The translations under genes were made by a program, and so were the position numbers. This document shows positions 50,918-56,082 of a stretch of 64,000 nucleotides of DNA, piece by piece; the stretch's first letter is position 1; every line of letters starts with the position of its first letter. The notes under the pieces are model-generated. The model did not search any database. It was given only the letters and a program-made list of their open reading frames with translations, and had not been told where the DNA came from. The stretch comes from an uncultured Alphaproteobacteria bacterium (GTDB lineage Bacteria > Pseudomonadota > Alphaproteobacteria > Methylaequorales > Methylaequoraceae). Where the stretch lies: assembly GCA_902526175.1 (NCBI GenBank), contig CABZJY010000005.1:11711-75710 (forward strand). The letters run 5' to 3'.

Positions 50918-51349
50918 ATGAAAAAAATTTTATTTACCCTAGCAATTTTTTGCTTTGCAACAACAGCTTATTCTGCAGATGTTACTATTGAGATGCTGAA
51001 TAAAAACAAAGAAACAAAACAAAGAATGGTTTATAGTCAGGAACTCGTAAAAATTGATGCTGGGAAAACTATAGAATGGTTACCAACGGCTAAAGGTCAT
51101 AATGTTGAAATGCTTGCTGGACCAGATGGTTATGAATTACCAAAGAAGACTAAGTTAAATGACCCAGTTTCTATTAAATTTGATAAGCCTGGTATTTACT
51201 TATATCAATGTTCACCTCACGCAGCATTAGGAATGATTGGTATCGTGGTAGTTGGCGGTGATACATCAAATAAAGATGCCATTGCTAAATTGAAACTTAC
51301 TGGTAGTAAATCTAAGAAGAAAAGAGATAAATTATTAGAAGGTGTTTAA
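50918..51349 (+). CDS. paz: Pseudoazurin (type-1 blue copper protein)
   Basis: Signal peptide; EMLNK, KGHNV, YQCSPHAALGMIG supply His/Cys/His/Met ligands. Confidence 0.93.
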   Translation: MKKILFTLAIFCFATTAYSADVTIEMLNKNKETKQRMVYSQELVKIDAGKTIEWLPTAKGHNVEMLAGPDGYELPKKTKLNDPVSIKFDKPGIYLYQCSPHAALGMIGIVVVGGDTSNKDAIAKLKLTGSKSKKKRDKLLEGV

Positions 51350-51360
51350 GCTTTAGATTT

Positions 51361-52245
51361 CTATTGAACAGGAGCTCTTCCTCTTATAAGAGCTTCTGTA
51401 GTTCCCCCATCATCAGCTATTTTTCGTTTACCAGGACGCAAACTTAAAACTGGGATATTATGTTTATTTAAGATCATATCAATTTCTTTTTGATTGGTTT
51501 TAATAAATTTATTTAATTTTTTTTTCCAATCTGTTTCTCCATCTCTAACACCCATTGTAGTGTAATAGTCCATTTTACCCCATCCCTGATCTGTTGATTC
51601 TAAGGGGATAATTACATAGTCTGATTTACTAAGTCCATTTTTGGCTAAATAATGACTAGCAATGGGTCCAGACATATAAACTATATCAACCATACCATCA
51701 ATTAAATCTTCAATCATGGTTTCTCCGATAACAGCAACTCTTGGATCAAAGGTTAAGTTATAAGGTCTAACTTTGCTCATTAGGTTATATCGTTGTAATA
51801 AAAATGTTGGGGGGGTACCAGCCTGCGCACCTATTCTTAAATCAGCTAATTGAGGGTGGTCAGGTCTATCAACTTCAACACCAGTATCTTTTAAATAAAC
51901 CATAGAGTATGCCCATCTCATATAAGGAATTGTATTCAATACAAGATCATTGTTAGCAGTGATCCCAATTATGATATCGCACTTTTTCTTATTCAAAGTA
52001 CTTCTAACATATCCTATGACTTGAGGAAAATAGTCATATACCACAGGAATACCTAACTTTTTCCCAATAAGACTAGCAATTTCATTTTCATAACCTTGCT
52101 GCTTATCGTTAGAAAAAGGCATGTTGGCTGGATCCGCACATACTCTTAAGTTTTCAGTATCTACGGCTTCAATAGCAGATTCTCTAGCTTCTGATTTAAA
52201 ATATATTAAACTTATTGAAAGCAGAAATAAAAAAAATTTGTACAT
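51361..52245 (-). CDS. xoxJ: XoxJ/MxaJ-family periplasmic binding protein
   Basis: LRVCADPANMPFSN, GYENEIA, KCDIIIG, MGVRDGETDWK. Confidence 0.9.
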   Translation of the reverse strand: MYKFFLFLLSISLIYFKSEARESAIEAVDTENLRVCADPANMPFSNDKQQGYENEIASLIGKKLGIPVVYDYFPQVIGYVRSTLNKKKCDIIIGITANNDLVLNTIPYMRWAYSMVYLKDTGVEVDRPDHPQLADLRIGAQAGTPPTFLLQRYNLMSKVRPYNLTFDPRVAVIGETMIEDLIDGMVDIVYMSGPIASHYLAKNGLSKSDYVIIPLESTDQGWGKMDYYTTMGVRDGETDWKKKLNKFIKTNQKEIDMILNKHNIPVLSLRPGKRKIADDGGTTEALIRGRAPVQ

Positions 52246-52260
52246 TCAATAATCTTATAA

Positions 52261-52890
52261 TTATTCAGCTTCTTTAAACTTAGGTAATTTAGGTAATCTT
52301 ACTCCGCGTCTAATTTTACCGTCGGCTCTTGCTTTCACATAACGATACATATCCTCAACATGAGGAGCAACGTTAGTGTTAGCGCCAAATGCAGGCATAA
52401 CATTTCCTGCTACGGCTCCTTCAGCCTCACCTCTACCATTCATAATAACAGCATAGAAATCGTCAAAAGATAATCCTTGTTGTAATGAAACCATTAGTGA
52501 GGGTGCGTAAGTACTTCCCATTGCGTCTGGACCATGACATACATGGCATTCTGCATGATAAGCTCTCCAACCTTTATAAGTTGAAAAATCCATCCAACCA
52601 TACTGCTCTTCAACTAGAGATGCATCATCTCTGCATGCATCTAGCTTTTCTTCACTTACCTGGTCGACGGCCTTACCATCACACAATATTTGTATCATAT
52701 TAAGTGGTTTGTTGGTAGATGGGTCTATTCTATCTCCCTTTCCATATTTTATAACATAGGTTGGGTTATCATTTTCGTCCCAGGCTGGTTCAACAGCATC
52801 TGGTCTAGGCACAGAATGAACTTGAAAGCCTAATGACAAAGTAATTACAAAAGCTAAAAAATTTTTGTTTATATTCATTATATTCCTCAC
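52261..52890 (-). CDS. xoxG: c-type cytochrome, XoxF electron acceptor (XoxG / c553i-like)
   Basis: YKGWRAYHAECHVCHGPDAMGSTYAPSL, VMPAFG, YVKARADG; between xoxF and xoxJ. Confidence 0.85.
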   Translation of the reverse strand: MRNIMNINKNFLAFVITLSLGFQVHSVPRPDAVEPAWDENDNPTYVIKYGKGDRIDPSTNKPLNMIQILCDGKAVDQVSEEKLDACRDDASLVEEQYGWMDFSTYKGWRAYHAECHVCHGPDAMGSTYAPSLMVSLQQGLSFDDFYAVIMNGRGEAEGAVAGNVMPAFGANTNVAPHVEDMYRYVKARADGKIRRGVRLPKLPKFKEAE

Positions 52891-53031: not shown

Positions 53032-54864
53032 CTACGGTAGAGCGAAGACAGTTAATACACCACCAAGGTTTGTGTGGTTGTGTAGTGCAGAGTATGCACC
53101 CACAGCACCTAAACCTGCAGTTGGGTCAGTAAGACCAGCAGCTAGACCAATTCCGGCCCATCCACCAACACCTGATAAGATACCAACATATTGCTTACCT
53201 TTGTGTTCGTAAGCCATGAAGTTACCAATAATACCAGAAGGTGTTTTGAACGAGAATAGTTCTTTACCTGTTTTACTGTCAACAGCTTTAGCATAACCTT
53301 CTAATGTTCCATAGAATGTAATACCACCGGCAGTTGCCATAGCACCACTCCATACAGAGAATGGCTCTGGGTTAGACCATACGATCTTACCTTTATCAGC
53401 ATCCCATGCAATGAAGTTACCTAGGTGAGTTCCGCCTGGAGCTGGGTACATTGATAATGTAGCACCAACATAAGCGTTACCAGCAACGTAGTCTACCTTG
53501 AATGGCTCATAGTCCATACAAACGTGGTTTGTTGGTACCATGAATAAACCAGATAGTCTATCGTAAGCAGCAGGCTGTTGGTCCTTAGTACCTAGAGCCG
53601 CTGGGCAGATGTTAGTTGTATTAACATCTTCACCTTGGTGAGCTGTTGAATATCTGTCAACAACTTGTGGACGACCAGTTTTCATATCAACGTGTGTTGC
53701 CCAGTTCACAGCTGGATCGTACTTCTCAGCTACTAATAGCTCACCAGAAGCTCTATCCATTGTGTAAGCAAAACCGTTACGGTCGAAGTGTACAAGAGCC
53801 TTACGGTTCTTGCCTTTTACTTTCATGTCAACAAGAATCATCTCGTTAACTCCGTCGTAATCCCACTCATCATATGGAGTCATCTGATATAACCATTTAG
53901 CCATACCATTGTCTGGGTTACGAGCGTTAATTGTCATAGACCATTTGTTGTCACCAGGACGAACAACTGGGTTCCATGTTGATGGGTTACCTGTACCGTA
54001 GTACAAAGTGTTTAATTTAGAGTCATAACCGTAGAAACCCCAAATTGAACCACCACCAATTTTCCATGCATCACCAGGCCAAGTTTTCAAGCTTGAATCT
54101 TTGCCTACAGGCTTAAGCATAGATGTAGTTTTACTAGGATCAACTAACATATCGGCATCAGGGCCCATACTGTAAGCTCTCCATAGTCTTTTACCAGTTT
54201 TGATGTCATACTGTGTCCAGTTACATCTAACACCGAACTCAGCACCAGAACATCCTACACCAACCATATCTTTAATGATGAATGGCTGACCTGAACCAGT
54301 AGATGCAGAAACACCATATTTACCAGTACCAGAGTGAAGGTTAGTTGTAACCCACTTCTCTTTACCAGTTTTAGCGTCTAATGCAATTACTGAAGTATCA
54401 GCAGCGTGTAGAACGATTGTACCATTTGGATGGTAGTTAACACCACGGTTTACGTTGTCACAGCACATAACTGAGATAACTCTGTCCATAGTCTCACCAC
54501 CTGGATACTTACCACCCTTAACTGGGTTGTACTTCCACATGATCCTTTGGTTGTCATTAAGATCTAAAGCGTACACAATGTTAGGAATCGCAGTGTGAAC
54601 ATACATTACGTCTCCGATTACAAGTGGACCACCTTCGTGACCTCTAAGTACACCAGTAGAAAAAGTCCAAGCGACTTTTAAGCTACCAACATTACTTTTA
54701 TTGATTTGATCCAATTCAGAGTAACGGTGTCCGGCATAGTCACCTGACTGCTGTACCCACTGTGATGGATCTTTCATCATCTTCTCAAGTTTAGCGTTAG
54801 CAGATACTAGACCTGGTAATGCTAATGCAGCAGAAGCGATGAGGGTTTTTTTTAAAATACTCAT
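53032..54864 (-). CDS. xoxF: Lanthanide-dependent PQQ methanol dehydrogenase XoxF (XoxF5-like)
   Basis: [30 protein letters not shown] with the extra Ln-ligand Asp, [12 protein letters not shown]; ATG at 54864 with signal peptide preferred over GTG at 54906. Confidence 0.96.
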
Positions 54865-55203: not shown

Positions 55204-55231
55204 TTGAAATTTTTTTTTTAAGTCATATAAT
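55204..55231 (+). promoter_or_regulatory. Putative sigma70 promoter of the SoxYZ-like gene
   Basis: TTGAAA-N16-TATAAT, 26 nt before the ATG. Confidence 0.5.
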
Positions 55232-55257: not shown

Positions 55258-56082
55258 ATGAGACATAATCATATCAATTATCTAATACTACTTTTATTTG
55301 TTGTCTTCTTCTTTAAGGTTGTAGATGCAGATGATCAATTACCTCCTCAAACAACATGGCAAACTAGTCTCAAGGATATGGTTTTTGGTAACGATGAAAT
55401 TTTTGATGGAAAAGATATTATTTCCCTCGAAACACCTTATCGAGCTTTGGATGCCGCAATAGTTCCAATTAAAGTGAAATTTAACAAAATTCAAGATAAA
55501 AACCTTTATGTTAAACATATAACAGTTGTTGTTGATGAGAACCCATCTCCTGTTGTAGGTAAATTTTCTACTTTTTTGAAAACTGGAAGCGCAGATATTT
55601 CAACAAGAGTAAGAGTTGATAAATATACATATGTTAGAGCAATAGCTGAAATGAGTGATGGTAAGAAATATATGGTGCAAAATTTTGTCAAAGCAGCTGG
55701 TGGATGCTCAGCTCCAAGTCTTGCTGATATGGATACAGTGATGACCAGACTAGGCAAAATGAAAATGAAGTTTCTTCATACAGGCTTAAAAGGAGAGGTG
55801 AATAAGGCAAAATTAGTAATAAGCCATCCAAATTTCTCTGGTTTACAGTTCAATCAACTCACGAGAACTGAGATTCCGGCACATTTTGTTGATTCAGTTT
55901 CAATAACTCAAGATGAAAGTAAAATTCTTGAAGTTACACCAGATATATCTTTATCCGAAGACCCAAACATTACATTTCATTATATGAATTCTGGCGGTCC
56001 TTTAAATGTTATCGTAACAGATAGCGATGGCGGAAAATTTACAAAAAGCTGGCCTGTTAATCAATTAATTAGTAAGAATTAA
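55258..56082 (+). CDS. Quinoprotein dehydrogenase-associated fused SoxYZ-like carrier protein
   Basis: Signal peptide; PYRALDAAIVP, DENPSP, TRVRVDKYT, VKAAGGCSAP, HPNFSGLQ, SLSEDP. Confidence 0.88.
   Translation: MRHNHINYLILLLFVVFFFKVVDADDQLPPQTTWQTSLKDMVFGNDEIFDGKDIISLETPYRALDAAIVPIKVKFNKIQDKNLYVKHITVVVDENPSPVVGKFSTFLKTGSADISTRVRVDKYTYVRAIAEMSDGKKYMVQNFVKAAGGCSAPSLADMDTVMTRLGKMKMKFLHTGLKGEVNKAKLVISHPNFSGLQFNQLTRTEIPAHFVDSVSITQDESKILEVTPDISLSEDPNITFHYMNSGGPLNVIVTDSDGGKFTKSWPVNQLISKN

Follow-up and report, generated by a model that had tools for sequence, protein, structure and literature searches.

What does a carrier protein of the SoxYZ type do next to a methanol dehydrogenase, in a bacterium without sulfur-oxidation genes? 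The question is raised by a stretch of 64,000 nucleotides from an uncultured alphaproteobacterium (assembly GCA_902526175.1, contig CABZJY010000005.1, positions 11,711 to 75,710), hereafter the window, in which the gene of a fused SoxY-SoxZ-like protein, hereafter the carrier, lies next to xoxF, encoding a pyrroloquinoline quinone (PQQ) dehydrogenase. The carrier is an ordinary member of the already catalogued family TIGR04557 and not a new kind of thing. The family, its fusion, its context of xoxF or alcohol dehydrogenase genes and its metallo-β-lactamase-fold (MBL) and rhodanese-like partners are catalogued (TIGR04557/04558/04559/03865) and have been discussed before (PMC12997753, PMC11237559), and the gene set called ‘quinoprotein relay’ consists of TIGR04557 together with TIGR04558/9 and TIGR03865. 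What is new is that the co-occurrence of carrier and hydrolase shows no exception although the two can be unlinked, that a streamlined marine methylotroph has a minimal, rhodanese-free version of the set, and that two companions of the carrier, a protein with four cysteines and one of 277 amino acids (aa), are assigned to Orf6 and Orf7 of Methylorubrum extorquens AM1, for which genetic data exist.

The assignment to TIGR04557 is based on a score of 244.2 bits (NCBIfam, cut-off 140), with positions 1–226 of the 226 profile positions covered. The carrier is a single chain in which a SoxY-like domain is followed by a SoxZ-like domain, as expected from an earlier note on this DNA, which had described a fused SoxYZ-like family with an internal arm cysteine in the motif AAGGCSAP at the junction of the two parts. 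This cysteine could be confirmed as C150, which is the sole cysteine of the protein, is located between the two domains and is matched in a phmmer alignment to the cysteine on the SoxY arm of Thermus (4uwq_B). In a family alignment of 88 sequences G148, C150, S151, A152 and P153 are invariant, and across 47 proteobacterial loci the arm motif reads G-[GA]-C-S-A-P. Using the same alignment, AlphaFold2 (AF2) produced a model with a mean predicted local distance difference test (pLDDT) of 90.5 and a predicted template modelling score (pTM) of 0.85, with lower confidence at residues 146–165, which represent arm and linker, while a single-sequence prediction reached a pLDDT of only 51.6. The halves of the model were matched by Foldseek to SoxY (2ox5_Y) and SoxZ (2ox5_A) with target-normalised template modelling scores (TMt) of 0.82 and 0.84 and a root mean square deviation (rmsd) of about 2 Å, so that the single chain forms two β-sandwiches, one like SoxY and one like SoxZ. 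The N-terminus shows MRHNH, a hydrophobic stretch and VDA/DD, and the N-termini of related carriers are hydrophobic and have no twin-arginine motif. Judged by inspection, the carrier looks like a protein exported to the periplasm via the Sec route, in agreement with the export proposed before.

In its order of putative signal peptide, SoxY domain, internal G-G-C-S-A-P and SoxZ domain the protein resembles the catalogued TIGR04557 carriers (PMC11237559), and it also shares their surroundings, as it adjoins a PQQ dehydrogenase, the cytochrome of this enzyme and a XoxJ-like protein and has a SoxH-like MBL in the same genome. It probably belongs to the high-scoring, XoxF-linked subgroup that Osvatic et al. 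2024 named SoxYZ-S4 (PMC11237559). In contrast to the catalogued sets, the MBL is unlinked here and the CXXCW rhodanese-like member is missing from the lineage, and the host differs from the catalogued hosts in being a streamlined marine alphaproteobacterium without sulfur-oxidation genes.

Both domain folds match those of canonical SoxYZ from Paracoccus pantotrophus (2ox5/2oxg) and Thermus (4uwq) with TMt values of 0.81–0.86 at an rmsd of about 2 Å, and the homologous cysteine likewise comes after the last SoxY strand. However, canonical SoxYZ is a heterodimer whereas the carrier is one chain, and the cysteine of canonical SoxY is part of a free C-terminal GGCGG whereas C150 is internal, with S-A-P and then a helical linker behind it. 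SoxY uses export by the twin-arginine translocation (Tat) system, in contrast to the putative Sec-type signal of the carrier. The two also differ in their partners, which are SoxAX, SoxB and SoxCD for canonical SoxYZ. In the genome of the window, an assembly that is 83% complete, SoxB was not found, and SoxA was found neither there nor in 18 relatives of the same family, SoxX and SoxCD not having been searched. This genome has just one SoxY/Z-like locus. In agreement with the earlier claim that no sox enzymes are nearby, a Pfam and NCBIfam scan of the open reading frames (ORFs) between 50918 and 57250 detected no gene for a Sox enzyme, an MBL or a rhodanese close to the carrier. The missing rhodanese neighbour had been pointed out as well, and its absence extends beyond the neighbourhood, as the CXXCW rhodanese-like protein (TIGR03865) had no match in any of the 19 family genomes including that of the window with its 83% completeness.

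The carrier also stays below the cut-offs of true SoxY (TIGR04488, 67.7 vs 125 bits) and true SoxZ (TIGR04490, 46.6 vs 76 bits), and a canonical Sox role is ruled out by these scores together with the searches in which SoxB and SoxA were not found. One might still think of a remnant or alternative Sox-type carrier that gains energy from thiosulfate or sulfide with the help of unrecognised sulfur enzymes, as SoxY and SoxZ homology and fold are evident and a release of sulfate from SoxY by SoxH-like proteins has been proposed for a Sulfurimonas strain (cited in PMC11237559). Yet the conserved context of the carrier is xoxF/pqq and not sox, it has no C-terminal GGCGG, and the failed SoxY and SoxZ cut-offs as well as the SoxB and SoxA searches speak against this explanation too, which we regard as highly improbable; a residual Sox role is essentially excluded.

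Regarding the hydrolase, the earlier note had stated that the carrier persists without an MBL partner. This is correct for the neighbourhood but not for the genome, as a different contig carries the gene of a TIGR04559-type MBL (‘quinoprotein relay system zinc metallohydrolase 2’; G000:C7:56300-57238), and a loss of the partner is thereby ruled out. The protein scores 277 bits, which is 3 under the cut-off of 280; it consists of 312 aa, carries a signal peptide and has kept HxHxDH intact. Its neighbours in the genome, a SelO-like gene and a polyphosphate kinase gene, are unrelated. Among the 19 family genomes the carrier is present in 15 and the MBL in 16, with mismatches confined to the less complete assemblies, and 14 genomes including that of the window possess both, if G010, whose MBL is incomplete and lies at a contig end, is counted. 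In all 13 family genomes that could be judged, namely that of the window and 12 relatives, the two genes are located on separate contigs.

To look at this pairing on a larger scale we used an evenly drawn sample of 401 Pseudomonadota genomes, in which co-occurrence was counted without regard to phylogeny. As TIGR04557 also exceeds its cut-off on adjacent canonical soxY and soxZ genes that are read through their stops, for example in the Thermus control, six-frame counts need a filter for internal stops and matches containing stops were excluded. This left 36 genomes in which a fused carrier without interruption exceeds the cut-off, and each of them also has a SoxH-like MBL (E ≤ 1e-40). The 21 top-scoring carriers match the 21 top-scoring TIGR04559 proteins almost one-to-one. 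In 41 of 58 related loci the MBL adjoins the carrier. Thus, carrier and MBL need not be physically linked but do have to occur together, and such obligate pairing speaks for the loading of C150 followed by hydrolytic unloading rather than for pure disulfide exchange. A different arrangement occurs in Methylococcales (L006-L011, L016-L018, L032, L035), where the MBL-carrier pair is located not by xoxF but by a LysR regulator and genes for an NAD-linked formate dehydrogenase (FdsA/FdsB-like), and in Thiodiazotropha fdhAB have been described as linked with the pair (PMC11237559).

On its other side the carrier gene is followed by two genes for exported proteins of 113 and 277 aa, for which no significant match was obtained in Pfam, NCBIfam or PDB sequence profiles (best E values 0.03–0.7). 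We clustered the ORFs of the 58 related loci by BLASTP and tblastn, and both proteins clustered with genes from L063-L066. In these loci the gene order pqqB-pqqCD-pqqE-(277-aa)-(113-aa) corresponds to META1p1750 to 1746 of M. extorquens AM1, and the primers used to delete orf6 (META1p1746) and orf7 (META1p1747) in AM1, taken from the supplement of PMC7391723, map into the respective homologues with 0–5 mismatches. For orf7 there are no mismatches in the homologues of L064 and L063, and one orf6 primer encodes DNDYPTD, which is the N-terminal motif of the 113-aa protein. Primer mapping and synteny thus identify the two neighbours as XoxF accessory proteins of the Orf6 and Orf7 families, an assignment made at the level of sequence and gene order. 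Like those of AM1 they are exported and adjoin xoxFGJ. Identity to the AM1-like homologues is low (about 25–30%), and unlike in the AM1-like genomes, where the carrier-MBL pair is located elsewhere, orf6 and orf7 of the window are convergent to the carrier gene and abut it.

An orf6-family gene is found beside the carrier in 26 of the 58 loci and abuts it in all 14 genomes of the window’s family where it was found, and an orf7-family gene follows xoxJ or precedes orf6 in 16 of the 58. Within the 401-genome sample Orf6 is present in 24 genomes, 21 of them with a fused carrier; where the carrier scores high, 20 of 21 genomes have Orf6. Partners specific for the carrier they are not, as this was ruled out by G137, G382 and G422, where both genes are located beside xoxFGJ/pqq with the carrier elsewhere or absent. 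Four cysteines of Orf6 are invariant (in the numbering of the mature protein C16, C30, C32 and C90) and include a CxC motif, which suggests a redox role. In AM1 growing on methanol with lanthanum, deletion of either orf6 or orf7 reduced the growth rate from 0.16 per hour in the wild type, to 0.03 and 0.08, respectively (PMC7391723), and this tie to growth phenotypes offers a tractable genetic entry to the function of the ‘quinoprotein relay’. The retention of carrier, hydrolase, Orf6 and Orf7 in a genome of approximately 1.3 Mb that has lost the rhodanese-like partner and has no Sox enzymes defines a minimal XoxF accessory core.

What is loaded onto C150? All characterised SoxY proteins carry sulfur adducts, to our knowledge. 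In other taxa the set includes the rhodanese-like CXXCW protein and a thioredoxin-like gene, and methanol growth of H. denitrificans is inhibited by thiosulfate (PMC12997753, PMC11237559). Because of the SoxY precedent, these partners and the thiosulfate inhibition we rank a sulfur adduct first, as the cargo of a conditional protection or repair cycle for XoxF, although we put it forward tentatively and as possible rather than probable. In such a cycle C150 would be covalently loaded in the periplasm with a persulfide, an S-sulfonate or a mixed disulfide, with the carrier either taking over the sulfur adduct from the electrophilic centre of XoxF (the C5 carbonyl of PQQ and the strained Cys-Cys disulfide) or intercepting it ahead of this centre. 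The loaded C150 would then be cleared by the SoxH-like binuclear metallohydrolase, which is encoded on the other contig here, and the pair would serve XoxF and not thiosulfate respiration, with Orf6 and Orf7 presumably belonging to the same accessory set. The cycle would protect or repair the enzyme under certain conditions and would not be a core step of its maturation. A screen for loss of XoxF1 activity in AM1 hit orf6 and orf7 at least four times each, a frequency that neither carrier nor MBL reached (PMC7391723), and transposon sequencing with random barcodes (RB-TnSeq) of P. putida showed minimal phenotypes for the carrier and MBL genes (PMC12997753), which together suggests a conditional and not a core role.

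Several points weigh against a sulfur cargo. We know of no member of the TIGR04557 family on which an adduct has ever been measured. The lineage has neither the rhodanese-like partner nor sulfur-oxidation genes, so that the link to sulfur comes from homology and from other taxa. Coupling of sulfite or thiosulfate to a thiol requires an oxidant, for which no candidate can be named; moreover, C150 forms part of an internal loop and not of a free C-terminal arm, which may limit its reach into the active site of a partner. Furthermore, the co-occurrence statistics are uncorrected for phylogeny, and the formate dehydrogenase neighbours in Methylococcales and Thiodiazotropha (PMC11237559) hint at one-carbon (C1) rather than sulfur chemistry.

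The explanation we rank second extends the formaldehyde trapping proposed in the earlier note. Here, C150 would react with periplasmic formaldehyde or another aldehyde to a thiohemiacetal, XoxF would oxidise it to an S-formyl thioester and the MBL would release formate and the free carrier. Such a relay would mirror the glutathione-dependent formaldehyde pathway in the periplasm, with a protein as the carrier and a thioesterase step like that of glyoxalase II, and MBL-fold thioesterases such as glyoxalase II do exist. Hydrolysis of a thioester would suit the obligate pairing of carrier and hydrolase, both of which are retained even in a streamlined genome, and the carrier family accompanies aldehyde-producing PQQ dehydrogenases of the methanol and the ethanol type (PMC12997753), in addition to the position of the pair by formate dehydrogenase genes in L006-L011 and Thiodiazotropha (PMC11237559). 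Nevertheless, no carbon-binding SoxY-type carrier is known, a protein thiol used stoichiometrically is ill suited to absorb the main flux of carbon, and the internal position of C150 is a difficulty here as well. Moreover, AM1 has homologues of the carrier set (META1p1703-1705; PMC12997753), and yet XoxF1 produces free and lethal formaldehyde in vivo in its fae mutant (PMC7391723, PMC6414531). A relay to formate at high flux, or formaldehyde trapping as a main flux, is thus unlikely, and we consider the aldehyde explanation as a whole unlikely. Its most elaborate form, in which carrier, unlinked MBL and XoxF constitute a protein-thiol aldehyde oxidation relay releasing formate with Orf6 and Orf7 as docking or redox helpers, appears to us more doubtful still, even if it would amount to a new C1 pathway in the ocean’s most active lanthanide methylotrophs. 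The carrier thiol might also act without any hydrolysed cargo by forming or restoring the vicinal Cys-Cys disulfide of XoxF, perhaps together with the CxC-bearing Orf6, or by aiding the insertion of PQQ or lanthanide; a role in keeping this disulfide in its proper state had been suggested in the earlier note as well. Disulfide maintenance and protection are ideas already in print (PMC12997753, PMC11237559), the former raised in PMC12997753, and the vicinal cysteines in the XoxF translation, the tight linkage of the carrier to Orf6 with its four invariant cysteines and the requirement of orf6 and orf7 for normal lanthanum-dependent growth of AM1 (PMC7391723) would fit. But a hydrolase has no role in pure thiol-disulfide exchange, and its constant presence (36/36), which is left unexplained, therefore argues against simple disulfide maintenance. 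A protein with a single cysteine is also unable to finish a disulfide exchange cycle alone, P. aeruginosa lacks these genes and yet its ExaA contains the same disulfide (PMC12997753), and the carrier was not among the hits of the AM1 screen that yielded orf6 and orf7. Accordingly, we regard this explanation as improbable and prefer the sulfur-adduct cycle, within the limits given above.

The features of the locus are listed in Table 1.

Table 1: Features of the carrier locus, in positions of the window.
Feature	Position	Strand	Remarks
Fused SoxY-SoxZ-like carrier, TIGR04557 member	55258..56082	+	274 aa, ATG start
Sec-type signal peptide, residues 1-25	55258..55332	+	Putative cleavage after VDA, by inspection
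SoxY-like domain, residues 42-150	55381..55707	+	Pfam PF13501, 1e-31
Arm loop A-A-G-G-C-S-A-P (A146-P153)	55693..55716	+	C150 codon 55705-55707
SoxZ-like domain, residues 176-265	55783..56052	+	Pfam PF08770, 1.1e-21
Promoter-like site TTGAAA-16-TATAAT	55204..55231	+	27 nt upstream of carrier ATG
Orf6-family exported 4-Cys protein, 113 aa	56079..56420	-	Convergent to carrier
Orf7-family exported protein, 277 aa	56417..57250	-	
xoxF, PQQ methanol/ethanol-family dehydrogenase	53032..54864/54906	-	TIGR03075, 673.8 bits
xoxG-like c-type cytochrome	52261..52890	-	TIGR03874, 119.8 bits, under cut-off 161.75
xoxJ-like periplasmic binding protein	51361..52245	-	TIGR03871, 238.5 bits vs cut-off 212
Pseudoazurin-like cupredoxin, beside xoxJ	50918-51349	+	TIGR02375, 90.5 bits, under cut-off

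The xoxF context of the carrier, already recognised in the earlier note, is borne out by the profile matches: running away from the carrier the divergent xoxF is followed by xoxG and xoxJ, and beyond these by the pseudoazurin-like gene and pqqBCDE. The XoxF translation contains the vicinal cysteines (VMCCDN) and DEWDYDG. Divergent orientation of carrier and xoxFGJ is also found in L002-L005, and in the betaproteobacterial loci L039 and L047 all genes form one co-directional run xoxF-xoxG-xoxJ-orf7-orf6-carrier-MBL. The promoter-like site upstream of the carrier agrees with the consensus at 11 of 12 positions and ranks first in the region; sites of this kind are no more numerous in this AT-rich DNA than expected from shuffled sequence. 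At the other end the stops of carrier and orf6 overlap in TTAA (56079-56082) and no terminator-like site was found between the two genes, so that their transcripts may overlap in antisense.

The assembly of the window comprises 1.33 Mb in 31 contigs with about 30% GC, the host being a streamlined marine alphaproteobacterium of about 1.3–1.6 Mb and 30% GC. From its nearest relatives the host probably belongs to ‘Clade X’, an uncultured marine alphaproteobacterial group formerly binned as Rickettsiales, whose xoxF5 genes are reported to show the highest expression of all in ocean metatranscriptomes (PMC11996626).

Some further observations concern single genes. Ahead of its matched domain the XoxG-like cytochrome is extended N-terminally by approximately 95 residues. 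A pseudoazurin-like gene similar to that of the window is located between xoxJ and xoxF in L071, and XoxF/XoxG might use the cupredoxin as an alternative acceptor of electrons. A Methylophaga (L025:2994-4741) and a betaproteobacterium (L039:6395-9914) each have two fused carriers within a single locus. Distant relatives of the carrier with 23–38% identity and without the CSAP motif occur in Gemmatimonadota (L048-L059), where some end in G-L-N-G-C-G in the manner of a split SoxY and are placed with genes of the tetrahydromethanopterin (H4MPT) type and an MBL; by their sequences they look like a different subfamily.

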